A DNA stretch of 64,000 nucleotides from Alkalispirochaeta sp. GTDB taxonomy: Bacteria > Spirochaetota > Spirochaetia > DSM-27196 > Alkalispirochaetaceae. Positions 6,835 to 38,778 of the stretch are shown piece by piece. The notes below the pieces were generated by a model. It searched no databases. It saw nothing but the letters and a program-made list of their open reading frames with translations, and was not told the origin of the DNA. The stretch lies in assembly GCA_965601925.1 (NCBI GenBank), contig OZ271854.1:2336001-2400000 (forward strand), written 5' to 3'. The translations under genes and the position numbers were made by a program. Every line of letters begins with the position of its first letter. Position 1 is the first letter of the stretch.

Positions 6835-8268
6835 TTACCCGTATGTTTCGACGTAGGCCTCAAAGGCGTCGTGGAAGCACGTTTCCGGCGGCTTTACGAG
6901 ACCTGCGCCGACCATTCCGACACCCGGGTCTTTGTGCGCGATACCGGTATTGATCGCGGGGAGTACGCCCGTTTCCACCACCTTGACGACGTCGATCGCC
7001 GTCGGCGTGCCGCGAAAATCCATCGCCGGAATCTGATACGCATCGTTCTCGGCCATCGTAATCTCATACATCTGACGGGTAACGTTCAACGCATCGGCCG
7101 GCTTGCCGCCTACGAACTTGACGATCGCCGGGGCCGCCGCCATCGCAAAGCCCCCGATACCGCTCGTTTCGGTGATGACTGAGTCTCCGATGTCTCGCGC
7201 TGCGTCGTCTGCGGTGAAACCGGGAAGATAGAGCCCGTCGATCACCGACGCCGGTCCGGTGAACCATCGATCGGGCATCGATGAGATGCGGATACCGAAC
7301 TCCGTTCCGTTACGCGCCATGGTATAGATGAACGAACTCCCATCGATACCGGCCGCCGCGTCGACGGTGCACTTCGCCGCCGGCATCGTCAGGTTGAGAA
7401 AGAAGTGATCGTTCTCGTGCATGAAGCGCAGTACGCGCGCGATCTTCTCCCGCGGCTCCTCAAGCATCACCAAGTACGGCGCCGTCTCCCGAATGAAAAG
7501 ACTCGTGCCGGCGCGATTACGATTGTGTCCCTCATCGCCCATTTGAAGCACTTGGGCGATGAGGTTTTTCATATCTATCGGGCCGTGGGCCCGCAACGCT
7601 GCGCCCAAGATCGGCGCGAGTTCGTCCGCCATCCACCTAAGGCGGTCGATCACCTCTTGTGAGTTGGCTCCGTAGCGCAGCACCTTGCCCAGTCCTTCGT
7701 TGAGTGTGCAGTAGGCACGGTTACCGAACGCGGCGTTCTCCATGATCCATACGGGCATACTGGCGGTCACCACGCCCGCCATGGGGCCGACGGCGCTATG
7801 GTGATGACACGGATCGAACGTTATCTCTCCGGACGCCGCGAGCTTCTCGGCTTCCTCTCGATCGGATGCCAGTCCTTCGTATATCAGACCGCCGATTACC
7901 GCACCGCGCAGCGGACCGGACATGTCGAACCACTCCACCGGCGGCCCGGCGTGGAGGATGAGTTTCTTGTGCATACCGGGAACCACGTCGGCGGCGATGC
8001 CGATATCGACGAGGGTAGGCTTGCCGGCCTGCACGCGTCGTACCGCCTCTGCGTTGGCCTCCTTGCGGTTGAGCGTACCCGACGCTTCGGCCGCCTCGAG
8101 ACGATCGAAGAGCGAGATCAAATGAGCGTTGCCCCCGGCCGGCGGTCGCCAGTCCACCTGAAGCGTTCGTACGTCCAGGGACCGAAGTGTATCCGCAAAT
8201 CCTTCGAGTCCCAGATTGACGACTTTGAGATCTTGTTTGAATAGATCGTTAATGCTCTTGACGTTCAT
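6835..8268 (-). CDS. DUF1116 protein (YahG/YlbE(AllG)-like transcarbamylase subunit)
   Basis: LHAGPP, PCHHHSAVGPMAG, NEGLGKVLRYGA, MGDEGHNRN, DIGDSVITET, INTGIAH; YahG-type N-terminal VNLGL...VDWRPPAGG segment. Confidence 0.9.
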   Translation of the reverse strand: MNVKSINDLFKQDLKVVNLGLEGFADTLRSLDVRTLQVDWRPPAGGNAHLISLFDRLEAAEASGTLNRKEANAEAVRRVQAGKPTLVDIGIAADVVPGMHKKLILHAGPPVEWFDMSGPLRGAVIGGLIYEGLASDREEAEKLAASGEITFDPCHHHSAVGPMAGVVTASMPVWIMENAAFGNRAYCTLNEGLGKVLRYGANSQEVIDRLRWMADELAPILGAALRAHGPIDMKNLIAQVLQMGDEGHNRNRAGTSLFIRETAPYLVMLEEPREKIARVLRFMHENDHFFLNLTMPAAKCTVDAAAGIDGSSFIYTMARNGTEFGIRISSMPDRWFTGPASVIDGLYLPGFTADDAARDIGDSVITETSGIGGFAMAAAPAIVKFVGGKPADALNVTRQMYEITMAENDAYQIPAMDFRGTPTAIDVVKVVETGVLPAINTGIAHKDPGVGMVGAGLVKPPETCFHDAFEAYVETYG

Positions 8269-8279
8269 GGTGTGCTCCT

Positions 8280-9845
8280 TCAGCGCGATCCCAATGCGGC
8301 CATAATCCGCCCCGCGAGCCGTGCCGCTTGATGGTTCGACGGCATGACGACCGCTCCCGCATCTTCCAGCGTACTGCGTTGCGTCGACAGACGTTGGACG
8401 TCTCCCTCGGTGCCGGTTACGCTCGCCACGACGGCCAGATAGCCGCCGCGTTGTGCCGCCGCCTCTTTCATCATCCGGATCGCCGGGGCGAGCGCGCCCG
8501 CGGGGTCGGGATGGCTGCCGTATCCGATAACGCAGTCCAAAATGACGACCGCCACCTCGGTGTCGGCAGCCTCTCGCTCCATGCGTTCGGTGCGTATGGA
8601 CGGATCGATCATCGGGTGCGGCCGTCCGACGGTAAAGATATCTTCGCCCAGATCCACGATCGTGTGTTGTTGCGAGACGTGCGGATCGCGCAGCGCAAAT
8701 TGTCGGTCCGCGGGATCGAAGGAGTGCACGCCGCCCAACGCATCGTTGAGCACGAAGACGGCCTCGTCGGTGAGCGTTCCGCCGGTGAAGTAACCGCGCA
8801 GATACCGTTGGCCCGATGCGATGCTCGCGGTCTCCCGTTCGACAATTGCGTCGATGTGTTCGTCCGAGAGCGCAAAGGGCCGTTCACGATATGATCTCCC
8901 TTTCGCGAGCGCAACGGCCGAGAGGGCGGCCTCTTCCAGGTTGCCGGCGTAGTGGAGTGTGCTGCCGGTCGCCGACGCGTCTCGTTGTAACCCGATGAGG
9001 TGCACGACCGCCGGCTTACCCGTCTTCTCGAGCGAGGCGAGCACCGTGTCGGCCACCGCCGGCGCAGGGGGCTTCGAGATGACGACGATGACCTTCGTCT
9101 CATCGTCCGCGGCAAGCGCCTCGATGGCCATCAGCGTCGTCGATCCGCCGACCTCTTCACTTTTGAGATCACGGCCTCCGGTACCGATCGCCTGCCGTAC
9201 TCCGCCTCCCGCCTTCGCAATCAGACTCGTAACTTCCTGTAATCCGGTGCCGGACGCGCTCACAACGCCGATCGATCCCTCCGGCACTACATTGGCGAAG
9301 CACAGAGGCTTACCGTTAATGATTGCCGTGCCGCAGTCGGGACCCATCATGAGTAAGCCTCGCTCGCGGGCGATTCGCTTGAGTGCGACCTCCTCGTCGA
9401 GCCCGACATTGTCGGAGAACATCATAACGTGACGGCCGGATACGAGCGCCTTGCGCGCCTCACGTGCGGCGTACTGTCCGGGGAGCGATATTACAACCAG
9501 GTTCGCGTCGCTCATCGCCTCGAACGCCGCGGCCGTGCTCGCCGGACGCCATCGCTCTCCTTCGCCCTCGTCGGCTTTTTTGCGGAGGAGCGCGTCGACC
9601 GTCTCTTCGGCGATCGATGCAACGTCCGCGGAGTCCGCATCGACGGCGATGATAAGATCGTTGGCGGTCGCGCCGTCAAGCTCGGTTCCGCCCAGCTTCA
9701 TGTCGTTCAGAAGATCGAGGTTCATCTCGGTTCCCATAGCGACGACCGCCTCCGAGATACCCTCCATCTTTTTTATGTCGGCGCTGATCAACATGAGGAA
9801 CACCGAATCGTAGTATGAGTCCTTGCGTAGGATGATCCGCTTCAT
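8280..9845 (-). CDS. fdrA: FdrA/YahF-like acyl-CoA synthetase-fold protein (AllF-like)
   Basis: YYDSVFLM, MGPDCGTA, ASGTGLQE, GTGGRDL, GRPHPMIDP, GYGSHPDP; GAGG RBS. Confidence 0.9.
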   Translation of the reverse strand: MKRIILRKDSYYDSVFLMLISADIKKMEGISEAVVAMGTEMNLDLLNDMKLGGTELDGATANDLIIAVDADSADVASIAEETVDALLRKKADEGEGERWRPASTAAAFEAMSDANLVVISLPGQYAAREARKALVSGRHVMMFSDNVGLDEEVALKRIARERGLLMMGPDCGTAIINGKPLCFANVVPEGSIGVVSASGTGLQEVTSLIAKAGGGVRQAIGTGGRDLKSEEVGGSTTLMAIEALAADDETKVIVVISKPPAPAVADTVLASLEKTGKPAVVHLIGLQRDASATGSTLHYAGNLEEAALSAVALAKGRSYRERPFALSDEHIDAIVERETASIASGQRYLRGYFTGGTLTDEAVFVLNDALGGVHSFDPADRQFALRDPHVSQQHTIVDLGEDIFTVGRPHPMIDPSIRTERMEREAADTEVAVVILDCVIGYGSHPDPAGALAPAIRMMKEAAAQRGGYLAVVASVTGTEGDVQRLSTQRSTLEDAGAVVMPSNHQAARLAGRIMAALGSR

Positions 9846-9898
9846 CGTGAACCTCTCTTTCCGTGGTACGTAGACGCTATACCCGCCGGCGATTCGTG

Positions 9899-10759
9899 TC
9901 AAACCGACGGCACGGTGTCGTCTCGCGGTCGAACCTGTAGTCCCCATAAGAGCCCCGTCAGAGCGTCGAGTCCGGAGCTGTGGCCGTGCGAACGTGCGAT
10001 TCTAATAGCCTCCGCGACGCGTCCCGTGGCGAGCGCATCTACGATGCGCAGTTGGTAGGTCGGCGGATAGCCGGCCAGCGCGACGCGCAAGAGCGAGGCG
10101 CCGCCGGCGGTAGTCTTGGACAACGCGCGTTCTACCTCGTCGTGGTCTACGAGCCGTGTGCCGAGGAGGATTTCGGCGGCGAGCACACCGCTGACGAAAT
10201 CGTCTCCCGACGGTGTAAACCCGCCGCCCAACCCCACCAGGCGGGCGATCGCACGGGATCGTGGGGTCGACCCGCCGTACAGCGTCGCGACGGCACGGTG
10301 GACGAAGGGGTCGTCGTCGAATCGACGGCTGTGTTCCGAGGACGCGGGATCGATAAGGAGTGCTACGAAGCCGATCGTCCCGTGGTCGATAAGGAGGCGG
10401 TCCCGGGCCGTCGATATCGTGCGTGTCGACGGACGGGTCGTCGGTGAGGGGCGCGGCGGCGTCGGCCCGCGCTCAACGGGGAACGACGTCTCAGCGTTTC
10501 CGACGACGAGCACTCCCTCGGCCGTTAAGAGCACCGGAACGGTCGTCCCTTCGCTCCGCGTCGCCGTCGTAATGACGGGCCACATCGCGTGGGGCACCGC
10601 AATGGATAGTTCGGTCCAATCTCCGCGATCGCGCGTCAATGAGACGAAGTACGCGCCGCGCCGGTCCCGTAGCGCGATATTGACGGCTGCGTCGTGAACA
10701 CTCGCGACGGTTCCCGCGAAGCGTTCGGGGACGAGCTTTCCACGCGTTAGCTGGGCCAT
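9899..10759 (-). CDS. DUF2877 protein (YahE/YlbF(AllH)-like)
   Basis: LVGLGGGFTPSGDDFVSG and GHSSGLDALTG motifs; adjacent to fdrA. Confidence 0.85.
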   Translation of the reverse strand: MAQLTRGKLVPERFAGTVASVHDAAVNIALRDRRGAYFVSLTRDRGDWTELSIAVPHAMWPVITTATRSEGTTVPVLLTAEGVLVVGNAETSFPVERGPTPPRPSPTTRPSTRTISTARDRLLIDHGTIGFVALLIDPASSEHSRRFDDDPFVHRAVATLYGGSTPRSRAIARLVGLGGGFTPSGDDFVSGVLAAEILLGTRLVDHDEVERALSKTTAGGASLLRVALAGYPPTYQLRIVDALATGRVAEAIRIARSHGHSSGLDALTGLLWGLQVRPRDDTVPSV

Positions 10760-10797
10760 GGCGCCTCCGCTTCTCCGTCGGCCGATGCCGGAGAATG

Positions 10798-10825
10798 AAA
10801 AACCTCCGCCGGTTCGGCGGAGGTT
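10798..10825 (-). terminator. Probable intrinsic terminator downstream of the NCS2 permease
   Basis: Perfect stem AACCTCCGCCG/CGGCGGAGGTT with a short T-tract on the minus strand. Confidence 0.6.
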
Positions 10826-10890
10826 CGGCAGGTTGTCGATGAGGGATACGAGTCGCCTCTCGTCGGTACGGGCGGCTCGCTTACTCGCGG

Positions 10891-12114
10891 TCAGGCGCTC
10901 TTGAAGCTCTTGAAGTTGATGAGGATGTTGAGAGCGATTCCGACGATCGCCGACAGGGCGAGGCCGGAGAAGGTCACCTGGCCGAGACTGAACTCGGCTC
11001 CGCCGAGACCGAGCACGAGCATAGCTGCGGATATGATCAGCGGTTGCGGCTTGTTCATGTCGACCTGCGCCTCAACCATGTTGCGGATACCGATCGCCGA
11101 GATCATACCGAAGAGCAGGATCGATATACCGCCGATGACCGAGCCCGGTATGGTGCCGATGAGTGCCGTGAACTTGGGAATCACCGAGAGCACGATCGCG
11201 AAGATCGCGGCGATGCGCATAACGAGCGGATTGTATACTCCGGTCAAGGCGACCGCGCCGGTGTTCTCGCTATAGGTGGTGTTTGCTGGGCCACCGAGAA
11301 GTGCGGAGAGCGACGTCGCGAGACCGTCACCGAGGAGGGTGCGATTGACGCCCGGATCGTCCAGGAAGTCTTTCTTTACGACGTTTCCGATAGCGATCAC
11401 GTCGCCGAAGTGTTCCACCATCGTCACCAACGCGACGGGAACGATCAACGCCATGGCGCCGCCGGCGAACTTGGGAAACATAAACTCGGGGAGTCCTATC
11501 CAACGCGCCTCACCGACGCTCGAAAAGTCGACCGCACCGGCGATGAGGGCGATGACGTACCCGATCACGAGGGCGAATAAGACGGGAAGCATCGAGAGAA
11601 ACTTGAAGCCGATACGCTCGAATCCGACCTTCACGAATACGCCGACCGCGAATGTAATGACGGCGATCGTCCAGTTGCTGCTGGCGCTGCCGACGGCGAC
11701 CGGTGCGAGGCTCATACCGATGAGGATGATGATCGGCCCGGTAACGTGGGGGGGCAGGATTTTGTGCAAGACGTCGTGGGAGACGAAGGTAAAGATGAGC
11801 GATACCACGGCATACACGAGACCCGCGATGAGGATACCTCCGGTCGCGTAGGCAAGGTCGCCGCCGAAGTTTTCGGCTACGGCCAGTATCGGCGGTATGA
11901 ACGCGAACGAGCTGCCCAAAAAGACGGGGACTTTGAATTTCGTCAGTACGTGGAATAACAGCGTTCCCAGCCCCGCAGCGAATAGCGCCACGCCGACGCT
12001 GAGCCCGGTGATTATCGGCACCAGAACGGTAGCACCGAACATCACGAAGGTGTGCTGCAAGCCCAGGATTACCGTCTGTCCGCTAATCCCTTCCTGTTTG
12101 ATCGTGTCGGACAT
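10891..12114 (-). CDS. uraA: NCS2 nucleobase:cation symporter, UraA-like (uracil/pyrimidine permease)
   Basis: GLQHTFVMFGATVLVP, LGSSFAF, EHFGD, NTTYSENTG (UraA-type E-N signature rather than the xanthine-type Q-N). Confidence 0.85.
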   Translation of the reverse strand: MSDTIKQEGISGQTVILGLQHTFVMFGATVLVPIITGLSVGVALFAAGLGTLLFHVLTKFKVPVFLGSSFAFIPPILAVAENFGGDLAYATGGILIAGLVYAVVSLIFTFVSHDVLHKILPPHVTGPIIILIGMSLAPVAVGSASSNWTIAVITFAVGVFVKVGFERIGFKFLSMLPVLFALVIGYVIALIAGAVDFSSVGEARWIGLPEFMFPKFAGGAMALIVPVALVTMVEHFGDVIAIGNVVKKDFLDDPGVNRTLLGDGLATSLSALLGGPANTTYSENTGAVALTGVYNPLVMRIAAIFAIVLSVIPKFTALIGTIPGSVIGGISILLFGMISAIGIRNMVEAQVDMNKPQPLIISAAMLVLGLGGAEFSLGQVTFSGLALSAIVGIALNILINFKSFKSA

Positions 12115-12289
12115 AGAAGCGACTCCTTACCTCTTGGTATGTTGAAGGCCGACGGCCCTCGTGAACGTAGTAATCATTTCAGTGTACATGCCATTTCGTA
12201 TTAATCAAGGGCATTCGGCCCACAGCCGACACCATTGCGGGACCGCTTCCATTCCCGTGCGGCGGCTCGGCGAGCTCAGTTGCACTTTC

Positions 12290-12318
12290 TTGACAACCCC
12301 GAGGAGTGGGCGTACCGT
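12290..12318 (+). promoter_or_regulatory. Putative sigma70 promoter for the decarboxylase operon
   Basis: TTGACA-17 bp-TACCGT. Confidence 0.5.
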
Positions 12319-12353: not shown

Positions 12354-13916
12354 TTGGACAGGCGAGAGGCGATCCGACATATGCGCGAGATGCGCGAGCG
12401 TGTGTCGCGCGGCGGCGGCGAAGCGCGTATCGATGCGCAACACGCGAAGGGTAAGTTGAGCGTCCGGGAACGCCTGGATCTTCTCCTCGACGAGTCGAGC
12501 CTCATAGAACACCAAACGTACATGAAAGGGCGATTCACCGCCTTCGGCCTCGACGAGCGACGCTTACCCGGAGACGGCGTCGTAAGCGGAAGCGGTCTCG
12601 TCGACGGCAGGCAGATTTTTTTCTCGTCCCAAGACTTCACCGTCCTGGGAGGTTCGCTGGGGGAGCAACACGCCGAGCGTATCGCCGAGGCGCTGACGCT
12701 CTCTCTCAAGACCGGTACACCCTTCGTGCAGATCAACGATTCCGGGGGCGCGCGCATTCAAGAAGGTGTACTCTCGCTCCACGGCTACGCCAAGATTTTT
12801 CGCGCCAATACACTCGCCTCCGGTGTGGTCCCGCAGATTTCGGTCATTCTCGGACCGTGCGCCGGGGGTGCCGTGTACTCGCCGGGTATCACCGATTTCG
12901 TCTTCATGGTGGACGGCATAAGCAACATGTACATCACCGGCCCCGACGTCATTCGCGCGGTCACCGGCGAGGAGATCACCCACGAGGAGTTGGGGGGCGC
13001 CGCGGCCCACGCGGTCAAAAGCGGGGTAGCACACTTTCGGTACGCTACCGAGGAGGCGTGCATGGTAGGGGTCAGGCGGCTCCTGTCGTACCTTCCGTCC
13101 AATAATCGGGAGGCTCCACCGCGTATCGGGAGCGATGAGACCGGTCGGGACGACCCGGATCGCAGCGTACCGGAGGTGCTCGATATCGTCGCCGACGACG
13201 AACGCACCGGGTACGACGTGCGAGCGCTCATCGGCGTCGTGTTCGATGCGAAGAGTTTTATGGAGGTCCACGCCGAGTACGCCGCCAATGTGGTGGTCGG
13301 CTTCGCTCGACTGGCGGGGCGCACCGTCGGGATATTTGCCAACCAGCCGATGGTGACCGCCGCCGCGCTCGACGTCAACGCGAGCGACAAGGGGTCGCGT
13401 TTCATTCGGTTCTGCGACGCCTTCGGCATTCCGGTCGTTACCCTCGTCGACGTCCCCGGCTTTCTGCCCGGTGTGGCGCAGGAACACGGTGGGATCATCC
13501 GTCACGGCGCCAAGATTCTCTATGCCATCGCCGAGGCGACCGTACCCAAAATAGCCATGGTGATTCGCAAAGCGTACGGCGGCGCGTACATCGCGATGGC
13601 GGCAAAGGGACTGGGGTACGATCGCGTGTTGGCGTGGCCGACGGCGCAGATCGCCGTAATGGGACCCGAGGGCGCCGCCAACGTCGTGTTTCGCAAGGAA
13701 ATAGCGGCGGCCGACGATCCGGCCGAGATGCGGCGCCGCAAAATCGTCGAGTTTACCGAGAGCGTGACCGACCCGTTCGTCGCCGCCGGCTACGGGTACG
13801 TCGACGAGGTAATCGACCCGGTCCATAGTCGCGCGGAGTTGATTCGCTCCCTCGAGATGCTCGCCCGCAAGGACGAAGAGCGTCCGTGGCGTAAACACGG
13901 GAACATACCCCTATAG
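12354..13916 (+). CDS. mmdA: Acyl-CoA carboxyltransferase subunit (methylmalonyl-CoA decarboxylase alpha-like)
   Basis: DSGGARIQEG, GPCAGGAVYSP, DVPGFLPG, RKAYGGAY, KHGNIPL; AAGGAG RBS with TTG start. Confidence 0.88.
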   Translation: MDRREAIRHMREMRERVSRGGGEARIDAQHAKGKLSVRERLDLLLDESSLIEHQTYMKGRFTAFGLDERRLPGDGVVSGSGLVDGRQIFFSSQDFTVLGGSLGEQHAERIAEALTLSLKTGTPFVQINDSGGARIQEGVLSLHGYAKIFRANTLASGVVPQISVILGPCAGGAVYSPGITDFVFMVDGISNMYITGPDVIRAVTGEEITHEELGGAAAHAVKSGVAHFRYATEEACMVGVRRLLSYLPSNNREAPPRIGSDETGRDDPDRSVPEVLDIVADDERTGYDVRALIGVVFDAKSFMEVHAEYAANVVVGFARLAGRTVGIFANQPMVTAAALDVNASDKGSRFIRFCDAFGIPVVTLVDVPGFLPGVAQEHGGIIRHGAKILYAIAEATVPKIAMVIRKAYGGAYIAMAAKGLGYDRVLAWPTAQIAVMGPEGAANVVFRKEIAAADDPAEMRRRKIVEFTESVTDPFVAAGYGYVDEVIDPVHSRAELIRSLEMLARKDEERPWRKHGNIPL

Positions 13917-13923
13917 GGACGCT

Positions 13924-14226
13924 ATGAATACCGAGTCGTTCGGATATGCGGTGCTTTCCGCGCTCGTCGGCATGGCGATCGTGTTTATCTTTCTCGTCGT
14001 CCTGAGCGCGATCATGGTCGTGCTCCGACGGGTGTTTGACGCTCCGGCGAGGAACGAGTCTTCCTCTCGCGGCGAGGCGGCCGCCGTAGACCTGATGCGG
14101 GAGACGCCCTCCTCGGCCGGCGATCCGCCGCAGTGGGTAATCGCAGGCGTCATGGCCTACTTGTCGTCGGAGGAGCAGAACAGCGCGCCGCACGCCGGTG
14201 TATGGACGAAATGGGGAAGGCAATGA
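13924..14226 (+). CDS. OadG/MmdD-type membrane-anchor subunit of a Na+-translocating decarboxylase
   Basis: N-terminal TM GMAIVFIFLVVL, VIAGVMAY, C-terminal W...GR; operon position. Confidence 0.8.
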   Translation: MNTESFGYAVLSALVGMAIVFIFLVVLSAIMVVLRRVFDAPARNESSSRGEAAAVDLMRETPSSAGDPPQWVIAGVMAYLSSEEQNSAPHAGVWTKWGRQ

Positions 14227-14690
14227 AGCGAGAGTTTACGCTCGATATCGACGGTCGACAGGTCACCGTAACGGTCGTGCGCGAAGGTGACACGATTCGC
14301 GTCGAGCGCGACGGAGAGGAGTATCGCGTACGCGTCCTCGCCGAGTCGGTAATCGGGGTGCAGTCGGCCCTCCGAGAACCGACCGGTAACGCCGGGCCCG
14401 CCGCCGAGGGGGTGATCGGCCGCCAACGGCCGGACTCCGTCTCCTCCGAGCACGACGAGGGTGGACGGTGGGAGGTCGCCTCCCCCATGACCGGCGTAGT
14501 CGACCAAATTCTGGTGAGTAAGGGGACGCGCGTCGTCGAGGGCGAGCGTATTGTCGTACTCGAGGCGATGAAGATGTTCATCGACGTCATGGCACCTGCG
14601 ACCGGTCGCGTTACGGAGATCTCCGTAACGCTGGGAGACAGCGTCCGCGAGAAGCAACCGCTACTCGTAATCGACGGTACGGCGGGATAG
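14223..14690 (+). CDS. Biotin carboxyl carrier protein (MmdC-like)
   Basis: SPMTG...VLEAMKM biotinylation motif; ATGA overlap with the upstream gene. Confidence 0.88.
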
Positions 14691-14694
14691 CCCC

Positions 14695-15804
14695 GTGGAG
14701 ATACTCCAGGACTTCATTCGGTCCACCGCCTTTCCGGCCCTGAGTTGGCAGACGGTGGTCATGCTTGCCGTGAGCGTGCTGTTACTCTATCTGGGAATAG
14801 CCCGCAAGTACGAGCCGCTCTTGTTGGTTCCGATCGGATTCGGCGCCCTTCTCGCAAACATTCCCCTCGCCGATATGACCGTCGAGGGCGGCTTACTGTA
14901 CTATTTTTATTTCGGCATCGACGCCGGTATATTCCCGCCTCTGATCTTTCTGGGTGTCGGTGCGATGACCGATTTCGGGCCGCTTCTGGCAAAGCCCAAC
15001 ACCTTTTTACTCGGTGCGGCGGCGCAGTTCGGTATTTTCGGTACGCTCCTCGGCGCGCGTTTGCTGGGTTTCGACTTTGCCGAGGCCGCATCGATCGCGA
15101 TCATCGGGGGCGCGGACGGCCCCACGGCAATCTATCTGACCTCGCGGCTTGCCGACCACCTCTTGGGGCCGATCGCGGTGGCCGCCTACTCCTACATGGC
15201 GCTCGTTCCGGTGATCCAGCCGCCCATTATTCGGCTCCTTACCTCGAAAAAAGAGCGTATGGTCGTCATGAGCGACGTCACACCGGTGTCGCAGCGGGTA
15301 AAGATCGTATTCCCGATCGCCACCACGATCGTGATCGCTCTCTTTGTGCCGGCGGCCACCCCGTTGGTGGGTATGCTCATGCTCGGAAATCTTCTCCGTG
15401 AGGCGGGAGTCGTGGAGCGCCTTTCAAAGACGGCGCAAAACGAGCTCATTAACATCGTGACCATCCTTTTGGGAGTGAGCGTCGGAAGCCAGATGTCCGC
15501 AGCCGAGTTTCTCTCCGTGGAAACGCTCTTGATCATCGGTCTGGGCCTGCTCGCCTTCTCGGTGGGAACCGCGAGCGGAGTTCTTTTGGGTAAGCTCATG
15601 TACGTGCTCTCCGGGGGCACGATTAATCCTATGATCGGCGCCGCCGGCGTCTCCGCGGTACCGATGGCCGCCCGGGTAGTGCAAAAGGTCGGCCAAGAGG
15701 ACAATCCGCGTAACTTTCTTCTCATGAATGCTATGGGCCCGAACGTTGCCGGTGTGATAGGTTCGGCCGTCGCCGCCGGTGTCCTGTTGGCGTTGGCGCG
15801 TTAA
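14695..15804 (+). CDS. mmdB: Na+-translocating decarboxylase beta subunit (MmdB/OadB)
   Basis: [54 protein letters not shown]. Confidence 0.92.
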
Positions 15805-18560: not shown

Positions 18561-19564
18561 TTCCGTTTGAGTTCGATTTCGTTCGCGCCGAGTCGGTGGA
18601 GGAAGCGGCCGCGGCGTGGCGTGACGCCGAACGAGCCGGTAAATCGGCCGCCTACTTCGGCGGCGGCACCGAGTTGGTAACCTTGGCTCGCGACGCCAAG
18701 CGTCGATTTGACGTGGCGGTCGATTACAAAGCCGTTCACGAGGCGCGCCGAGCGGCGCGTGAGTCCGATTCGTACGTGCTGGGTTCAGCGCTCCGGTTGA
18801 GCGACCTCACCGACCGAGCCGGCGCGGGACTGGTCGGGTACTGCTGTAGAGGCGTTGCGGATCGCACGGCGCGTAACTCGATCACGCTCGGCGGCAATAT
18901 CTGCGGGCAGCTCGCCTACCGCGAGGCGGTGCTTCCCTTTCTCCTGCTCGACGGGAGCGTGGAGGTCGCCTCGACCGACGGCCGGCGTTGGGAGTATCTC
19001 CGTGACCTCTTTGATAAACGGCTGCGTCTCGATGCCGGTGAACTTGCCGTGGCGTGGGCGATCCCTGCCGATACACTCGCCGGACTCGGCCTTCTCGACG
19101 TCGGTGATCCGAGTGGCGGAGGGGGGAATGTGCAGACCGAGCGTGCCGATCTCGGCTACGGTGCCGTCGCCGCGGTCGGATCGGGAGGGCGAGGAGCGTG
19201 GTACTATTGCCGGCGAACCCGCGAATCCCGGCTCGATTATCCCCTCGCCACCGTTGCCGTGGCGTCGATCGACGGCGTCGTGCGCGTAGCCGTGGCCGGT
19301 GCGTGGGGATACCCAGCGCGGGCTCTCCGCGTCGAGGAGGTACTCAACGCTGAGTCGGTTGTAGCGGATGCGTTGGCGGCGGCCGGTTCCGGCTCGTCCG
19401 TCGAAATCGACGGCCCGTCGCTTCGTCGCGTCGTCGGTCGCGCTCTCGACGCCGAGGAACGACCGTTCAAACAAGATCAACGCGGCAGCCGCGAGTATCG
19501 TCGCGAGATGACCATTCGAGCCGTCACCGACGGAATCGTCGCTCTGTCCGGAGGGAGCCTATGA
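18557..19564 (+). CDS. Xanthine dehydrogenase family FAD-binding subunit (cluster 1)
   Basis: MIPFEFDF, FGGGTE, RNSITLGGNI, DQRGSREYR; ATGA overlap. Confidence 0.85.
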   Translation: MIPFEFDFVRAESVEEAAAAWRDAERAGKSAAYFGGGTELVTLARDAKRRFDVAVDYKAVHEARRAARESDSYVLGSALRLSDLTDRAGAGLVGYCCRGVADRTARNSITLGGNICGQLAYREAVLPFLLLDGSVEVASTDGRRWEYLRDLFDKRLRLDAGELAVAWAIPADTLAGLGLLDVGDPSGGGGNVQTERADLGYGAVAAVGSGGRGAWYYCRRTRESRLDYPLATVAVASIDGVVRVAVAGAWGYPARALRVEEVLNAESVVADALAAAGSGSSVEIDGPSLRRVVGRALDAEERPFKQDQRGSREYRREMTIRAVTDGIVALSGGSL

Positions 19565-20046
19565 AGGAGTATGCGGGAAAGGTGAAGCTCTCGCTCCGCG
19601 TTAACGGCGAGGTGCGGACCGTATGGGTCTCTCCCGCCGATACGCTCTTGTGGACGCTTCGCAACCCCTTGGGGCTGACGGGGACGAAGCTGGGGTGCGA
19701 GAACGGCGACTGCGGAGCGTGTACCGTCCACGTCGATGGAGTACCCGTCAAGTCGTGCTATACGCTCGTCGTCGACGTCGACGAACGGGAGATCACTACG
19801 ATCGAAGGACTGCGCGACAGCCCCGTGCAGGAGGGTTTTCGCGTCGAGTACGGCTTTCAGTGCGGATATTGCACCTCGGGATTCATCATGAACGGCCATG
19901 CACTGCTCGATGCGCACCCCGACGCGGACGCCCCAACGCGCGTAGAATGGTTGCAATCGAACATCTGTCGCTGCACGGGTTACGAGGGTATCGAACGTGC
20001 CCTCGATCACGCCGGACGAGCGATTGCCGAGAACGACGGTGAATAG
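19561..20046 (+). CDS. Xanthine dehydrogenase family 2x[2Fe-2S] subunit (cluster 1)
   Basis: GTKLGCENGDCGACTV, QCGYCT, NICRCTGY. Confidence 0.93.
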   Translation: MKEYAGKVKLSLRVNGEVRTVWVSPADTLLWTLRNPLGLTGTKLGCENGDCGACTVHVDGVPVKSCYTLVVDVDEREITTIEGLRDSPVQEGFRVEYGFQCGYCTSGFIMNGHALLDAHPDADAPTRVEWLQSNICRCTGYEGIERALDHAGRAIAENDGE

Positions 20047-32027: not shown

Positions 32028-32495
32028 ACCCTACGGTCTCGGGAGCGAACGAAGCTTAGGCGTGAATCTGTGGGAAAAAACGCGGCAAAGATTGGGTCCA
32101 TTGCCGCCCTCTAAACGGATTCGCTCTGATTCGGCATTCTATCATATCGAATCGATGTTGATAGTGAAGGCATACCTTGCAAAGCAGCAACGCGATGTAA
32201 CGATATACTCGGCGTCGTTCAGCACCGATACGGTCGTCGACGCATTTACTCACGGAGAAGCCATACGAAGATTGCGAAAGCCGTCGAGTACACGGCGTCT
32301 ACGCTCCCCGTTCCTCGTCCGGGAGCGTTTGTGACGTTCCTTTCGGTAGGCGAACACTCGTAGAAGAGACAGATCTCTCGGTTGCGAGGAGGAGGGCGGG
32401 CAGTTCTCTCCTCGATCCGACGGTCCGTCGCGGTGCGGCTCCGAGCCGTGCCGTCGACTCCGGGCCGTATGCACGATCATGCGGCAACGGCTTTC

Positions 32496-32524
32496 TTGAC
32501 AACATTCGCGGTCGGGCGGACAAT
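32496..32524 (+). promoter_or_regulatory. Putative sigma70 promoter for Xdh cluster 2
   Basis: TTGACA-17 bp-GACAAT. Confidence 0.55.
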
Positions 32525-32629: not shown

Positions 32630-33481
32630 GTGATGCTACACGAGTTTTCGTATCATCGTCCCGATTCGCTCGACGACGCGTTGACCCTTCTTTCGACATA
32701 TGGAGCGGACGCGGCGACGTTTTCCGGCGGGACCGATCTATTTGTAAATGTTCGCGCGGGGTTGATGAAACCGCAACACGTCGTCGATCTCAAGGGAGTA
32801 ACGGCTCTCCACGAGCTGTCGTGGAGTGCGTCGGACGGACTCTCGATCGGGGCGTGCGTAACGGTCAACGAGTTGGTGGATCACCCCGTGGTGCGCGACC
32901 GGTTTGCGATATTGAGTATCGCCGGCAGCGAGCTTGCGACCTTTCAACTGCGAAATCGAGCGACGGTTGTCGGTAACATCGTCACCGCGAGTCCGTGCGG
33001 CGACATGGCCGGTCCGCTTTTGGTGCTCGGAGGAGAGGTCGTCCTTGCGAGCTCCGCCGGCGAGCGCTCGGTGCCGCTGGGCGAGTTCATCACCGGTGTG
33101 AAAAAGACGATTATCCGTCCCGACGAGATCGTGGTGCGTATCGTAGTGCCCAATCGCTGGGCCGGAGCCGCCGGTGGATACGAGAAGCTCAAACGTATCA
33201 AAGGCCACGATCTCGGCGTGGTAAGTGTAACGCTTATCAAGCACGAAGAGGGTGTACGGGTCGCGATAGGCTCTGCGGCACCCACGCCGGTGCTCCTCGC
33301 CGACATGAGCGCCGACGTCGATTGGGAGACGGTACAGGCCAAGGCGAAGGGCCTTATCGACCCGATCGACGATGTTCGCGCGACGGCCGAGTATCGCGCG
33401 TTCATGGTGAATGTGTTTATCAAACGGCTTATGACTTCGATCCCGGCCGGCGGATCGGAGCTCAAGGAGGCTCTGGCGTGA
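32630..33481 (+). CDS. Xanthine dehydrogenase family FAD-binding subunit (cluster 2)
   Basis: SGGTDL, RNRATVVGNI..ASPCGD, PIDDVRATAEYR. Confidence 0.92.
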   Translation: MMLHEFSYHRPDSLDDALTLLSTYGADAATFSGGTDLFVNVRAGLMKPQHVVDLKGVTALHELSWSASDGLSIGACVTVNELVDHPVVRDRFAILSIAGSELATFQLRNRATVVGNIVTASPCGDMAGPLLVLGGEVVLASSAGERSVPLGEFITGVKKTIIRPDEIVVRIVVPNRWAGAAGGYEKLKRIKGHDLGVVSVTLIKHEEGVRVAIGSAAPTPVLLADMSADVDWETVQAKAKGLIDPIDDVRATAEYRAFMVNVFIKRLMTSIPAGGSELKEALA

Positions 33482-33999
33482 CGCGAATTCGATGCACAGT
33501 GAACGGTCAGGAGTACGAACGGGTCGTGTCGGATCACAAGACCTTACTCCTTTTTTTGCGCGGTGATCTGGGGCTAACCGGTACCAAGGGCGGGTGCGGA
33601 GCCGGCGAATGCGGCGCCTGCACCGTTATCGTGAACGGCAAGGCGGTCAACTCGTGTCTCATTCTTGCCGCGGAAATCGACGGTGCGGTAATCGAGACGA
33701 TCGAGGGCGAGGCGCGCGGTGGCGAACTCACCATCGTACAGGAGGCTTTCGACCGCCATCATGCCGTCCAGTGCGGATTTTGTACCTCCGGCATGATTAT
33801 GACCGTCAAGGATCTCCTTCGCCGCACGCCGCACCCGACGCGGGAAGAGGTCATCGAGGGAATCGAGGGCAACTTTTGTCGCTGTACCGGTTACGAACAG
33901 ATCATCGAGGCGGTTCTGGACGCCGCCGGTAAGGGTGCCGCCGACCGCGTCAAAACAGGCGATACGGTGGATTCCGCGAAGGAGAACGGCCATGCTTGA
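33478..33999 (+). CDS. Xanthine dehydrogenase family 2x[2Fe-2S] subunit (cluster 2)
   Basis: GTKGGCGAGECGACTV, QCGFCT, NFCRCTGY; GTG start overlapping the upstream stop. Confidence 0.93.
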   Translation: MTRIRCTVNGQEYERVVSDHKTLLLFLRGDLGLTGTKGGCGAGECGACTVIVNGKAVNSCLILAAEIDGAVIETIEGEARGGELTIVQEAFDRHHAVQCGFCTSGMIMTVKDLLRRTPHPTREEVIEGIEGNFCRCTGYEQIIEAVLDAAGKGAADRVKTGDTVDSAKENGHA

Positions 34000-36433
34000 A
34001 ACGACAGCCGCCAAAGAATTAACGCGTGTCGGTCGTCACACCCGGCGGATCGACGCGATTGAGAAGGTTACCGGACAGGCGACCTACGTAAGCGATATGA
34101 CGCTTCCCGGCATGCTCTACGCGCGAGTCAAGACGAGCCCGCACGCCAGGGCGCGCATCGTATCGATCGATACCGCCGCCGCCGCCGCGCTGCCGGGTGT
34201 CCGAGCGATCGTGACCGGTAAGGATCTCGACTATAAGCTCGGGCTGTACGTCGTGGACAAGGACATTCTGGCGCGTCACGAGGTGCGACATTTCGGCGAG
34301 GCCGTCGCGGCGGTGGCCGCCGACACGCTGGAAATCGCACAACGCGCCGTCGACGCGATCGTAGTGGAGTATGAGGAGCTGACGCCCGTCCTGCACCCGA
34401 AGGAGGCCGTCGAGGAAGGGGCGCCGCTCGTTCATCCCGATCTGGGGAGTTACTCCTACATGGAGGCGGCATTTACTCCCAAACCGGGCACCAACATCGC
34501 CAACCATACCAAGCTGCGCAAGGGCGATGTCGAGAAGGGATTTGACGAGAGCGAGTGGATCGTCGAACGTGAGTACACCAACCCCTCGGTACAGCACGTA
34601 CCCATGGAGACGCACGTGGCGATCGTCCGATGGGGGCAAGACGATCGGGTGGAAATCTGGTCGAGCGCCCAGTCACCCTTTACGCTGCGCAACCTCTTTT
34701 GCGTGGCATTCTCGTTGCCCCATCGCAACGTTCGGGTACAGGTGCCCTACGTCGGAGGAGGATTCGGCGGCAAGGCGGGTATCGGGATTGAGCCGCTGGT
34801 TGCGGTGTTGAGCAGAACCGCGGGCGGGCGACCGGTGAAACTTACCGCGACGCGCGAGGAAGAGTTTAGCCTGTTACCGTGTCGGAGTCAGCTCACCTAT
34901 CGCATCAAGACCGGCGTCTCCCGCGAGGGCAAGATCGTCGCGCAGCAGATGACCATGTGGTGGGATTCCGGGGCGTATGCGGACTACGCCGTCAACGTCA
35001 CGCGCGCTTCCGGGTATAGCGCCGGAGGGCCGTACGAGATTCCCAACGCACAGGTCGACGCCTACACCGTCTACACCAACAAGCCCTTCGGTACCGCCTA
35101 TCGCGGATTCGGACACGTCGAGTTCTTTTGGGGATTGGAGCGCCACATGGATCTGGTCGCGCAGGCGATCGGCATGGACGCGTTCGAGTTTCGGCTCAAG
35201 AACACGCTGCAGCCCGGGGCGAAGACGCTCACCGGCGAGACGATTACCGAGCACACCGGAGATATCGACGCGTGTCTCAAAAAGGCCGCCGATATGGTCG
35301 GATACGGCGCGATTACTCCCGAAGAAGAGCGCGCCGCGGCCCGCGGGGGCAAAAAAATCGGTAAAGCGGTGGTAGGACTCCACAAGGCGCCGGCGATGCC
35401 GCCGTTTACCGCAACGACTGTGATACTCAAGATGAACGAGGACGGAACCGTCACCGCCAACTTGAGTCTTGTCGACTATGGGCAGGGAACCTATACGGCG
35501 GTCGCGCAGATCATCGCCGAGCGACTCCGCATGAGCGTCGACAAGGTAAAAGTCGCATTCGAGTGCGATACCGATCGCGATCCCTACGATTGGCAGACCG
35601 TCGCCTCCAAGGGGTTGTTGTTGAGCGGTAACGCGGCGATTTTGGCCGCCGACGATCTGGTCGACAAGGGGTACGGCGACGCGGCGCAGATACTGCGGGC
35701 CAATCGGCGCGATCTCGACCACGACGGCGGCGGTATCTTCGTGCGCCATCACCCGGAGCATCGCGTGGAGTGGCGTCAACTTGCCGTCGGCTACGCCTAT
35801 CCCAACGGGAACGCAGTCGGCGGACCGTTGGTGGGTGTCGGACGCTACATCGCCCAGGGGCTGACGCACCTCAATAAGGAGACCGGCGAGGGACTCCCGG
35901 CGATCGATTGGACCTACGGCGCCCACGGTATGATCGTGGCGGTCGACGCCGAGACGGGCGAGTACGACGTGCTGAAGGTTGCCTCGGTCTTTGACGCCGG
36001 GCGTGTGATCAACCCGGACGCCTTTCGCGGCCAGGCGATCGGCGGCATGATCCAGGGACTCGGCACCGCAACCGTCGAGGGGTACATCTACGACAAGAAG
36101 GGGCATCTCCTCAATCCGAGCTTCACGGATAACAAGATTCCGACGTCCAAGGATATTCCGATCGAGATAGAGACCTTCGGTGTCGAGACGCCGCAGGTAG
36201 ACGGTCCGTTCGGCGCGCGCGGTATCGCCGAGCACAGCATGATCTCGGTGGCCGCCGCGTTGGGAAATGCGATCCAGCGCGCCACCGGTGCGGAGATTAC
36301 CCATATGCCGTTGCGCTTCGAGGATGTATGGCGAGCGCTCAACCGCAAGGAGCCGATCGACAACTGGATTACGAAGAGCCCTTTCGGGAGTTGCCGTTCG
36401 GCGCCGGAGTTGCAAAAGCACGACTGCGACTGA
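33992..36433 (+). CDS. Xanthine dehydrogenase family molybdopterin-binding subunit (cluster 2)
   Basis: SAQSPF, GGGFGGK, AYRGFG, DYGQG, GARGIAEH; AAGGAG RBS. Confidence 0.92.
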   Translation: MLETTAAKELTRVGRHTRRIDAIEKVTGQATYVSDMTLPGMLYARVKTSPHARARIVSIDTAAAAALPGVRAIVTGKDLDYKLGLYVVDKDILARHEVRHFGEAVAAVAADTLEIAQRAVDAIVVEYEELTPVLHPKEAVEEGAPLVHPDLGSYSYMEAAFTPKPGTNIANHTKLRKGDVEKGFDESEWIVEREYTNPSVQHVPMETHVAIVRWGQDDRVEIWSSAQSPFTLRNLFCVAFSLPHRNVRVQVPYVGGGFGGKAGIGIEPLVAVLSRTAGGRPVKLTATREEEFSLLPCRSQLTYRIKTGVSREGKIVAQQMTMWWDSGAYADYAVNVTRASGYSAGGPYEIPNAQVDAYTVYTNKPFGTAYRGFGHVEFFWGLERHMDLVAQAIGMDAFEFRLKNTLQPGAKTLTGETITEHTGDIDACLKKAADMVGYGAITPEEERAAARGGKKIGKAVVGLHKAPAMPPFTATTVILKMNEDGTVTANLSLVDYGQGTYTAVAQIIAERLRMSVDKVKVAFECDTDRDPYDWQTVASKGLLLSGNAAILAADDLVDKGYGDAAQILRANRRDLDHDGGGIFVRHHPEHRVEWRQLAVGYAYPNGNAVGGPLVGVGRYIAQGLTHLNKETGEGLPAIDWTYGAHGMIVAVDAETGEYDVLKVASVFDAGRVINPDAFRGQAIGGMIQGLGTATVEGYIYDKKGHLLNPSFTDNKIPTSKDIPIEIETFGVETPQVDGPFGARGIAEHSMISVAAALGNAIQRATGAEITHMPLRFEDVWRALNRKEPIDNWITKSPFGSCRSAPELQKHDCD

Positions 36434-36466
36434 CTCGCTACGGCGTGTGCCGCCCTCGGAGGTAGC

Positions 36467-37717
36467 ATGACGATCACCAATGCGCGACTGCGCCGCCGTG
36501 ACGGTTTGTGGACGATTCGCCTCGATGGCGATCGTATCGAGGCGGTCGTGCCGTATGGAGACGGACAACCCCGACGGAGCCTCGTCGCAACCGACGGCGA
36601 GGAGACCTCACCGCCCGAAGATGCGGTAATCGATGCCGGCGGCGCAATTGTGACCGAGGGTTTCGTGAACGGCCATTTGCATCTCTGCAAGGTCTATACG
36701 CTTCCGCTCGTCGGGGATACGGCGCTCGACGAGTACCATGGACGCGATATGGGCGGCGCGGTACGCGCGATCGAGCTCGCGCGGGGCGTCAAGAAACAGT
36801 ATCGCCGCGACCGACTCGTTCCAGGGATTCGCCGAGCCGTGGAACGCGCCGTCGTCTACGGTACGAGCCATGTTCGCGCCTTTGCCGATACGGATACCGC
36901 GGCCGAGCTGGAGGGTGTGCGTGCGGTGATGCAGGTTCGCGATGAGTTCCGCGACCGTATCGACATGCACGTAGTCGCCTTTCCGCAAGATGGACTTGTG
37001 CGCGATCCCGGAGCCGATCGTCTGGTGCGTCGAGCCATGGAAGAGGGCGCCGACGTGGTGGGCGGCATTCCGTGGATCGAGTATACCGATCGTGCCGCGC
37101 AACGACACATCGACACGATGTTGGATTTGGCCGTTGAACTGAGTGCTCCCGTGTCGATGCTCGTCGACGACGCCGGCGACGCGAGCTTACGGACGTTGGA
37201 GATGCTCGCCGTCGCCGCGCTGGAGCGTGGGTTACGGCATCGTGTCGTTGCGCATCACGCTCGCGCCATGGCCATGTACCCGGAACCGACACGGCGACGT
37301 CTATTCGGGATTCTAAAGGAGGCAGGTATCGGCGTGGTGAGCGACCCTCATACCGGACCACTGCACGCCGATATCGAGGGCCTGCGTGCCGCCGGTATAC
37401 CCGTCGGACTCGGACAGGACGACATGAACGATGCGTACTATCCCTTCGGGAGGAACAATATGCTCGAGGTGGCATTTCTCGCGGCGCATCTCCTTTGGAA
37501 GACGGGTGCCGATCAACTCGATGAGTTGTGCGATATGATCGGCACGGAGGCGGCGCGCGTCGTAGGTCTTGAAGATCACGGGGTTTTCGACGGCGCGCGT
37601 GCCAATCTGGTGGTGCATCGCGCCGGCACGGTAACCGAGCTTCTCGCCGAACACGCTGTGCCACGGGCGGTTATCTACAACGGTCGTGTTGTGGCCGAGG
37701 AGGGATATCTCGTATGA
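36467..37717 (+). CDS. Amidohydrolase, cytosine/creatinine deaminase-like
   Basis: HLHLCK, VAFPQDG, VVGGIP, GQDD, YPFGRNNML. Confidence 0.85.
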   Translation: MTITNARLRRRDGLWTIRLDGDRIEAVVPYGDGQPRRSLVATDGEETSPPEDAVIDAGGAIVTEGFVNGHLHLCKVYTLPLVGDTALDEYHGRDMGGAVRAIELARGVKKQYRRDRLVPGIRRAVERAVVYGTSHVRAFADTDTAAELEGVRAVMQVRDEFRDRIDMHVVAFPQDGLVRDPGADRLVRRAMEEGADVVGGIPWIEYTDRAAQRHIDTMLDLAVELSAPVSMLVDDAGDASLRTLEMLAVAALERGLRHRVVAHHARAMAMYPEPTRRRLFGILKEAGIGVVSDPHTGPLHADIEGLRAAGIPVGLGQDDMNDAYYPFGRNNMLEVAFLAAHLLWKTGADQLDELCDMIGTEAARVVGLEDHGVFDGARANLVVHRAGTVTELLAEHAVPRAVIYNGRVVAEEGYLV

Positions 37718-38121
37718 ACTTTCCGGGTATTAAGCCGGGGATGACCATCACCATTCGTCGATCGATCGTCGAGGCGCATACGTTCGACAATCATCTTCCC
37801 GACGAGGTCGAGAAGCTCCTCTCCACACCCTCCCTCGTCTCGTTTATGATCGAGGCGTCGGTCCGTATGCTTACTCCCTATCTACCGGACGGTTTCGTCT
37901 CCGTCGGCAAGAGCTCGGAGGTTATGCACGATCATCCGACGGTCGTCGGTTCCACCGTACATATCACCGTGCGGGTGACCGAGTTCGACGGATATCACGT
38001 CACGATCCTTATGGAAGCGGCCGATGAGATCGGCGTCTGCGGGCGAGGTAAGCACGTCCGTTCGATCGTGAATGAGCGTTGGTTGCGTCTCAAGGTTGCT
38101 CGGCGCATAGCCGCGCTGTAG
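37714..38121 (+). CDS. Hotdog-fold thioesterase, FlK-like
   Basis: LSTP, SVG...H..PT.VG, G.G.H.R.IV. Confidence 0.8.
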   Translation: MNFPGIKPGMTITIRRSIVEAHTFDNHLPDEVEKLLSTPSLVSFMIEASVRMLTPYLPDGFVSVGKSSEVMHDHPTVVGSTVHITVRVTEFDGYHVTILMEAADEIGVCGRGKHVRSIVNERWLRLKVARRIAAL

Positions 38122-38133
38122 CGTGTCCCGCGC

Positions 38134-38778
38134 GTGAAACACGTCTCTTCCGGCGATCGCGCCGTAGGGGTCGAGTGCGTGATACCGGCCGGAGGCGCGG
38201 CGCGGCGCATGGGAACCCCGAAACAGACCCTTGAGCTTGTCGCCGGCACCAGCCTTATCGTTCGCGCGGTGGAGAATGCTCTGTCGGTGTGCCGGCGATG
38301 CATCGTCGTTACCGGTGCAGCTCACGACGAGGTCGCCGCGCACGTTCGCGCCCTCCCCGAGGTGACGGTCGTGCACAACCGCGACTACGAGCGTGGAATG
38401 CTCTCCTCTATCATAGTTGGTGCCGCCGAGGTCGCGACGTCGACCTTTTTCGTCGCTCCGGCCGATATGCCGTTTCTTGCCTCCGACATCTATGTGACGC
38501 TCGTTGCGGCGCGGGACTCCCTCGGAGGGGCGCAGTATGACGACGGATGGGCGCTCTTTCCGGAGATGGGCGGGCGCACGGGGCACCCCGTATTGATCTC
38601 CTCGGCGGTTATACCCCGGTTGGTACGCGACGGTGTACGCTTCTCATCGATGAAACACTTTCTGTCTCGATACCCGGTTCGCACCGTACCGGTCGCCGAT
38701 GATGGGATATTCGTCGATATCGACACCCCGGAGGCTCTCGCCGTTGCGAGAGTGAGGGTGCGTGGGGAACGCGACTGA
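38134..38778 (+). CDS. Molybdenum cofactor cytidylyltransferase (MocA-like NTP transferase)
   Basis: AGGAARRMGTPKQ, GMLSSI, ADMP, GHPVLI, DIDTPE; in the Xdh operon. Confidence 0.85.
   Translation: MKHVSSGDRAVGVECVIPAGGAARRMGTPKQTLELVAGTSLIVRAVENALSVCRRCIVVTGAAHDEVAAHVRALPEVTVVHNRDYERGMLSSIIVGAAEVATSTFFVAPADMPFLASDIYVTLVAARDSLGGAQYDDGWALFPEMGGRTGHPVLISSAVIPRLVRDGVRFSSMKHFLSRYPVRTVPVADDGIFVDIDTPEALAVARVRVRGERD

Follow-up and report, generated by a model that had tools for sequence, protein, structure and literature searches.

The window analysed here, a stretch of 64,000 nucleotides from Alkalispirochaeta sp. (contig OZ271854.1, positions 2,336,001 to 2,400,000), carries a gene cluster that we predict to degrade uracil anaerobically. 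Genes were typed by open reading frame (ORF) calling and family scans with Pfam and NCBIfam, and all those named in a first-pass annotation of this DNA are present: a cyclase, an AllH-FdrA-AllG trio, a permease, a (methyl)malonyl-CoA decarboxylase (Mmd), two molybdenum hydroxylase (Mo-hydroxylase, Xdh) sets, a carbamate kinase, a deaminase, a thioesterase and MocA (Table 1). Positions 6835-38778 are divided among several transcription units instead of forming a single operon. The minus strand carries uraA-allH-fdrA-allG; the plus strand carries mmdADCB and, after it, Xdh set 1. The carbamate kinase gene stands by itself, and a further block groups Xdh set 2 with the genes for the deaminase, thioesterase and MocA. 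The blocks are separated by about 11 kb of unrelated genes, which include TetR/SDR/MATE genes, an Lsa36-like gene and an ABC transporter, and a 5.5 kb insertion parts the cyclase from allG, which it follows directly in most relatives. Is so dispersed a set a unit? The same grouping is found in other orders and phyla with its gene orders rearranged, and therefore exceeds chance. The source genome is a single contig, 96.7% complete; the named organisms nearest to it belong to Alkalispirochaeta and other Spirochaetaceae, and allG is present in 16/16 other genomes of the genus.

Table 1. Genes and promoter-like sites of the cluster; positions are those of the window unless a contig position is given.
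Feature	Position	Strand	Basis
Cyclase-family (KynB fold) metallo-hydrolase, predicted barbiturate ring opener	400..1296	-	PF04199
AllG/DUF1116 subunit, 477 aa	6835..8268	-	PF06545, E 6e-101
FdrA/AllF, CoA-binding and CoA-ligase domains	8280..9845	-	NF004760, 519 bits (cut-off 433)
AllH/DUF2877 subunit	9899..10759	-	PF11392
NCS2 permease, UraA/RutG (pyrimidine) clade	10891..12114	-	Tree, PDB match
Sigma-70-type promoter-like site before mmdA	12285..12318	+	CTTGACA, conserved in relatives
MmdA, (methyl)malonyl-CoA carboxyltransferase	12354..13916	+	TIGR01117, 743 bits (under cut-off 998.8)
Mmd membrane anchor (delta/gamma)	13924..14226	+	PF04277
Mmd biotin carrier	14223..14690	+	PF00364, EAMKM motif
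Na+-translocating carboxybiotin decarboxylase beta	14695..15804	+	TIGR01109, 507 bits (cut-off 190.6)
Mo-hydroxylase (Xdh) set 1: Mo, FAD, FeS subunits	16176..20046	+	Pfam/NCBIfam
Carbamate kinase	24798..25766	-	TIGR00746, over cut-off
Promoter-like site before xdh set 2	32491..32524	+	Near-identical to pre-mmdA site
Mo-hydroxylase (Xdh) set 2: FAD, FeS, Mo subunits; predicted uracil dehydrogenase	32630..36433	+	Pfam/NCBIfam, clade
CodA/AtzC-like deaminase, altered active site, accessory	36467..37717	+	29% to E. coli CodA
FlK-type hot-dog thioesterase	37714..38121	+	PF22636
MocA-like molybdenum-cofactor nucleotidyltransferase	38134..38778	+	PF12804; TIGR03310 under cut-off
Family-III CoA-transferase, 2.5 kb left of cyclase, outside window	contig 2332648-2333838	-	Nearest YfdE
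Malonamidase-E2-like amidase, outside window	contig 2331182-2332645	-	Best PDB match malonamidase E2

We propose that the cluster encodes an anaerobic, energy-conserving, oxidative degradation of uracil by way of malonyl-CoA to a Na+ pump, and would put the probability of this reading at roughly 0.65. It is built on observed families, linkage, co-occurrence, clades and residues, from which we infer every substrate and the order of the steps. Uracil would be imported by the permease and oxidised to barbiturate by a Mo-hydroxylase, and the cyclase-family hydrolase would open barbiturate to ureidomalonate. The trio would then cleave ureidomalonate with phosphate to carbamoyl phosphate and malonamate; carbamate kinase would draw ATP from the former, and the amidase would convert the latter to malonate and ammonia. 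The CoA-transferase would make malonyl-CoA from malonate and acetyl-CoA, MmdADCB would decarboxylate it to acetyl-CoA and CO2 while pumping Na+, and either the CoA-transferase loop or the FlK thioesterase would set acetate free. The predicted net reaction is uracil + 4 H2O -> acetate + 2 CO2 + 2 NH3 + 2[H], with a yield of one ATP and a Na+ gradient. A pyrimidine route to a malonyl unit and a Na+ pump had been suggested in the first-pass annotation; it survived the comparative tests and gained the amidase and the CoA-transferase, found 2.5-5 kb left of the window. In the open-licence literature searched (PubMed Central and bioRxiv) the route is undescribed.

Co-occurrence was scored in 62 genomes of the order, 35 with a cyclase orthologue and 27 without, using orthologue cut-offs (at least 74% identity for the cyclase, at least 66% for MmdA) that were chosen after the matches had been viewed; 5/6 MmdA proteins at 53-59% identity adjoin a mutase. 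The Xdh clade described below is present in 35/35 cyclase genomes versus 1/27 others, the amidase in 27/35 versus 1/27, the CoA-transferase in 21/35 versus 1/27 and the altered deaminase in 17/35 versus 1/27; the single exception is in each case the same fragmented genome, G064. MmdA matches of any kind occur in 28/35 versus 2/27, and those of at least 66% identity, which we call cluster-type, in 24/35 versus 0/27. Ldh_2 (AllD), a control family, shows no link to the cluster (26/35 versus 19/27). Fourteen of the 24 cluster-type mmdA genes lie on the same contig as allG or the cyclase, within about 12 kb of one of them, and the remaining ones are on other contigs of fragmented assemblies. The linkage of mmd and the joint occurrence of mmd and xdh with the cluster, both raised in the first-pass annotation, are thus conserved in the order.

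What would the cell take up? The permease, labelled UraA-type before, does group with E. coli UraA and RutG (47 rows, 100% support in the Shimodaira-Hasegawa-like approximate likelihood ratio test, SH-aLRT), apart from XanQ and UacT, in a quick IQ-TREE run; the Xdh and AllG trees were made with FastTree, and the deep joins are subject to long-branch caution. Its best PDB match is UraA (E 9e-79, versus 2e-17 for UapA). The uracil-binding residues given for UraA in the available portion of PMC5539350 (S72, F73, E241 and E290) are all retained. Other loci carry different members of the UraA/RutG clade, and because four of them have instead close kin that are sister to E. coli UraA, pyrimidine permeases were recruited more than once.

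The Mo subunits of Xdh sets 1 and 2 and all 43 cluster-linked ones elsewhere fall together in a single clade of 46 rows (local support 100%), which includes one Bacillus plasmid protein and stands apart from E. coli XdhA and XdhD and from the genome's own purine-cluster enzymes. The cluster Xdhs read GGGFGGKA, with Ala where the urate-cluster Xdhs of the genome have Glu after GGGFGGK, a position that we take to be that of the purine-binding Glu802. The first-pass proposal that these enzymes oxidise pyrimidines and not only purines is compatible with this separate clade. Linkage to the trio is most widespread for set 2, which is predicted to be the uracil dehydrogenase.

We compared 60 genome loci and the best 80 of 578 metagenome loci, many on short contigs and some from repeated organisms. 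The cyclase is present in 50/60 allG loci; its PDB relatives are weak only, kynurenine formamidases at E 1e-8. PF09663, the family of AtzD-type barbiturases, is unmatched in the genome, as it is in the control genomes, and the profile matches 10/401 Bacillota. A comparison of contexts between cyclase and barbiturase was also tried; none of the 10 AtzD loci in the 401 Bacillota has an intact cluster-type Xdh, so isofunction was not shown in this way, and plasmid Xdh matches, only 35-38% identical, were uninformative. The context of a cyclase from Rhodococcus ruber (40%) is different: it is of the Rieske-oxygenase kind and includes a distant DUF1116. The enzyme first described as cytosine-deaminase-like is indeed CodA-like, but its third metal His is Leu and its catalytic Glu is Asp, substitutions kept in 5 relatives. 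In L079, L084 and L191 this altered deaminase adjoins a trio with a BMP-type ABC transporter.

In the trio, AllG is 48% identical to YahG and 46% to YlbE, and FdrA is 44% identical to YahF and 41% to FdrA of E. coli. AllG has the length of YahG, and its N-terminus matches the FdrA C-terminus (NF004760 match, residues 10-57); this shifted domain boundary and the order allH-fdrA-allG are of the YahEFG type. Does the locus then explain YahEFG, as had been suggested? YahG falls outside the 27-row clade of cyclase-linked AllG proteins (95% local support, FastTree), and around the E. coli yah genes there is no cyclase, Xdh or malonate gene; the locus therefore assigns no function to YahEFG, and that suggestion is unsupported. 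The window's allH is the sole copy found in the genome and its carbamate kinase the only intact one; the latter gene lies within the cluster in 8/80 metagenome loci. A fragmented second carbamate kinase lies at 3.50 Mb (contig 3500665-3501046) beside a putative ornithine-fermentation cluster, and where allH meets fdrA (window 9874-9907, minus strand) a sequence resembling a promoter (TTGACA, 17 bp, TAGCGT) perhaps serves as an internal one for fdrA-allG.

Trio genes also keep other company. At least 2 of them are carried by 8/10 Bacillota loci with AtzD-family hydrolases. In L204-L209, L211 and L212 these ring-opening hydrolases share operons with AllFGH-type genes; four of the operons include a carbamate kinase gene, and some a second allG copy. 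Such operons are candidates for an ATP-yielding cyanuric acid or biuret route. Nitrifiers join the trio to biuret hydrolase (biuH-allFGHK), as described in the accessible part of PMC12625717. These contexts show that the trio is reused in several settings and do not prove its substrate here.

If the trio yields an amide, which enzymes take it to Mmd? The best PDB match of the amidase is malonamidase E2 (MAE2), over its full length (E 1.5e-43; the next family gives a partial match at 1.6e-36). By alignment and motif table it has the amidase-signature triad and an Arg three residues past the nucleophilic Ser, and it shares with MAE2 the motif GTQT.GS..R, its Arg aligned to Arg158, which presumably binds the carboxylate of malonamate. 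The motif is present in 38/40 trio-linked amidase rows (2 are truncated, and the rows include repeat fetches) and absent from the genome's other amidases. MAE2 converts malonamate to malonate and ammonia (PMC8393822, in the portion available). YfdE, which acts on small dicarboxylates, is the closest relative of the CoA-transferase (E 4e-100); all NCBIfam scores of the latter fall under their cut-offs. In relatives, the CoA-transferase comes after the cyclase in 22/60 genome loci and the amidase in 16/60. Together the pair would supply the steps leading from an AllFGH-type amide product to the acyl-CoA of Mmd.

All four Mmd subunits are encoded in the operon, among them the biotin carrier and the beta subunit of the Na+ pump, and the FlK thioesterase lies beside mmdA in L052, L063, L090, L214 and L221. 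The CTTGACA of the site before mmdA is present in 11/11 aligned intergenic regions. A 13-mer of this site, CTTTCTTGACAAC, has 2 copies in the genome, the other one only before xdh set 2; the near-identity of the two sites, noticed after the fact, is a hint of co-regulation.

Searches of the whole genome found no oxalyl-CoA decarboxylase, methylmalonyl-CoA mutase, epimerase, urease or PreA, with controls matched for each, and no Ldh_2 (AllD) match, with controls matched in 5/14. Without mutase and epimerase, Mmd lacks its usual feed, and the PreA search gave no reductive pyrimidine enzyme. Purine routes have clusters of their own elsewhere, which would count for the pyrimidine reading: an oxygen-dependent uricase/allantoin block (2233600-2245300) with uricase, OHCU-decarboxylase, allantoinase-like, AllC-like and AllE-like genes about 95 kb from the window, and an anaerobic urate block (1022500-1044000) with YgeW, YgeY, YgfK and SsnA homologues at 50-65% identity, a pathway outlined in the part of PMC12507026 at hand. 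The first-pass statement that the window has no allantoinase or ureidoglycolate dehydrogenase holds for the 65 ORFs scanned, and AllD was found nowhere in the genome; an allantoinase-like gene is nevertheless present in the distant block.

In loci lacking the amidase or Mmd, other families appear. A GNAT-fold protein occurs in 6/8 cluster genomes without the amidase and in 0 with it. Its model (predicted local distance difference test, pLDDT, 86) matches generic GNATs (best Z 13.5; ESM Atlas also searched). A role as malonyl-CoA decarboxylase was considered and rejected, with no decarboxylase among the matches listed and a distribution that mirrors the amidase and not Mmd. In a thiolase/DUF35 pair the nucleophilic Cys is missing (ENGPASG, versus EAACASG in PDB relatives). 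The pair and the CoA-transferase/amidase set occupy 42 and 38 loci, with 0 shared among the 140, although 2/42 thiolase loci (L178, L179) are unrelated 28-29% matches; the pair is likewise never in the same locus as Mmd. MmdA has no match in G031 and G039, the two genomes of the order with the thiolase pair in the fetched loci. A thiolase-like protein weakly decarboxylates malonyl-CoA according to the available section of PMC12329534. Our inference is that malonyl-CoA would be formed by the GNAT and decarboxylated by the thiolase pair, replacements that fit a malonyl intermediate. The Na+ pump is a spirochaete-type ending and not a general part of the cluster. In L093 a nitrilase-family amidase follows the cyclase.

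Several observations weigh against the uracil reading. The 62 genomes are kin, and their counts are not independent events. The permease departs from UraA at three positions (H245 to Asp, G289 to Ser, Y342 to Phe), and some near homologues of the cyclase are solitary genes even though their flanks are long (L162, L178, L197). A distance of 14 kb separates the carbamate kinase from the trio, and the YgeW urate route may use this kinase as well. In the available text of PMC11326118, oxalurate is the sole proven substrate of an AllFGH trio. The malonamidase-type motif would mark a carboxylate-bearing amide, and oxamate is also such an amide; YfdE, the closest characterised relative of the CoA-transferase, uses oxalate (NF008511, 380 bits, under cut-off). 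Two of 5 thiolase-type genomes still hold carboxyltransferases of 51-57% identity, and in distant phyla (L215, L216) Mmd lacks linkage to the cluster and belongs to the mutase/epimerase type. The mutase tracks the cluster (19/35 versus 2/27), and Mmd may therefore also serve succinate decarboxylation in many relatives.

Could the same chemistry serve a different main pyrimidine? Thymine would pass through 5-methylbarbiturate and methylmalonyl-CoA to propionyl-CoA, a cytosine-type base would enter through the altered deaminase, or barbiturate would be imported, with the two Xdh sets and a second allG/cyclase cluster splitting the substrates. We consider this unlikely. In its favour are the two Xdh sets of one clade, a MmdA whose best PDB matches are propionyl-CoA carboxylase beta and methylmalonyl-CoA carboxyltransferases, the enrichment of the mutase, and the confinement of the altered deaminase to cluster genomes. 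It is also favoured by a paralogous cluster across the contig ends (5051300-5053413 and 1-8742; L101, L102), with an allG 55% identical to the window copy, fdrA, two divergent cyclases, a BMP-type ABC transporter, a second malonamidase-type amidase and no second allH; this cluster, of which several relatives have two-cyclase versions, may handle a substituted pyrimidine or nucleoside. Cytosine is opposed by a normal codBA operon elsewhere in the genome. Thymine is opposed by the missing mutase and epimerase and by the retained Phe73, which Botou and colleagues reportedly found in 2018 to exclude thymine from UraA. The first-pass annotation had named uracil and thymine together; uracil stands, and thymine is less well supported.

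Mmd might instead be a co-located general decarboxylase, serving succinate/propionate or other malonate, beside an upper pathway that does degrade pyrimidines. The transcription of mmd away from the trio here, its lack of linkage in other phyla and the commonness of the mutase in relatives would suit this. Yet cluster-type mmdA keeps to cluster genomes, 10/24 of which have no mutase match; it runs in the trio's direction in L052, L063, L064 and L090 and diverges from it in others; its promoter-like site resembles that of xdh set 2; and the thiolase-type loci never carry Mmd. We regard a bystander role as improbable. A purine-derived C2 route, in which parabanate or oxalurate would give oxamate and carbamoyl phosphate, oxamate would go by oxalate to oxalyl-CoA and Mmd would be an unrelated neighbour, draws on the oxalurate activity of AllFGH, an acetyl-CoA:oxalate CoA-transferase as nearest relative, the uricase and allantoin genes 95 kb away and three loci with a more distant NCS2 permease (L079, for which the best-scoring model is that of xanthine permeases; L098; and a third of this kind in relatives), but is very unlikely given that AllD and oxalyl-CoA decarboxylase were not found in the genome, that the AllD family does not track the cluster, that the permease sits in the uracil clade with Glu290 kept, that the cluster Xdhs lack the Glu after GGGFGGK and that, to our knowledge, a biotin carboxyltransferase cannot decarboxylate oxalyl-CoA.

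How does the uracil reading relate to known systems? Na+-pumping (methyl)malonyl-CoA decarboxylases are known from Veillonella, Propionigenium and malonate fermenters, and the operon here likewise joins carboxyltransferase, anchor, biotin carrier and Na+-pumping beta subunit; unlike theirs, it stands in a genome without mutase or epimerase and would be fed malonyl-CoA from a nucleobase. The oxidative pyrimidine pathway of aerobic actinobacteria runs through uracil/thymine dehydrogenase, an AtzD-family barbiturase and ureidomalonase to malonate and urea (PMC3758960, in the part available). The predicted route shares its Mo-hydroxylase step to barbiturate, ring opening to ureidomalonate and malonate as carbon product, but would put a KynB-fold hydrolase in the barbiturase's place, cleave ureidomalonate with phosphate instead of hydrolysing it to urea, and yield ATP and a Na+ gradient in an anaerobic host. 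With the E. coli oxamate carbamoyltransferase AllFGH and carbamate kinase AllK, as presented in the accessible text of PMC11326118, it has in common the three subunit families (41-46% identity) and the kinase; it differs in its YahEFG-type order and domain boundary, its separate clade, its lack of AllD and the predicted further use of an amide that is a dead end there. The system would work like each of these two, but with no AllD found it falls outside the allantoin systems. The malonamidase E2 of Bradyrhizobium (PDB 1OCK) is the best structural relative of the amidase, full length and with its active-site motif, at about one-third identity; the amidase here is placed in nucleobase catabolism. 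The Bacillota AtzD loci and nitrifier biuH-allFGHK also combine a ring-opening or ureide hydrolase with trio and carbamate kinase but, as far as the available part of PMC12625717 extends, lack the cyclase, cluster-type Xdh and malonate-handling genes.

A wider claim, for which we see even odds, is that uracil fermentation of this kind is widespread among anaerobes, with four new assignments (a KynB-fold barbiturase, an AllFGH-type ureidomalonate phosphorylase, a GNAT transferring malonyl from malonamate to CoA and a Cys-less thiolase/DUF35 malonyl-CoA decarboxylase) and a primary Na+ pump as the last step in alkaliphilic spirochaetes. By existing accounts the oxidative pyrimidine pathway is rare, with few known hosts, all aerobic, and AllFGH works on oxalurate to give a product that is a dead end. 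Should the claim be true, one nucleobase would feed both substrate-level and decarboxylation phosphorylation, anaerobes of several phyla would gain energy from uracil, AllFGH-type trios would be general acyl-urea phosphorylases, and the cyclase clade, the Xdh clade, the GNAT and the Cys-less thiolase would each have a testable reaction. Two of three haloarchaeal plasmid regions have a 50%-identical cyclase with Xdh, NCS2 permeases, a CaiB CoA-transferase, a Cys-less thiolase/OB pair and a CocE/NonD hydrolase; trio genes are absent from the 29 kb displayed, and one region adjoins urease accessory genes. This set-up fits the known aerobic ending in malonate and urea and counts for the uracil reading; the haloarchaeal Xdh lies outside the cluster Xdh clade, a point against that reading.

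An Rfam scan of the window and its flanks gave no riboswitch and only transfer RNAs (tRNAs), with one tRNA gene in the window at 47927-47998 (minus strand). Between the cyclase and allG, positions 1921-6071 (plus strand) encode an SSS symporter followed by an acyl-CoA ligase split in two genes, the C-terminal half first; the N-terminal half is fused to a lipoate-ligase-like domain, and the arrangement is kept in L041-L045. A 228-aa coiled-coil protein with a nuclease-like motif, seen by eye, is inserted after allG (6097-6783, minus strand) and has zero Pfam or NCBIfam matches. At the other end, a TctA/TctC transporter and a 2-hydroxyacid dehydrogenase (39336-42920, minus strand) converge on the Xdh set 2 operon, an adjacency kept in L217 and L218.

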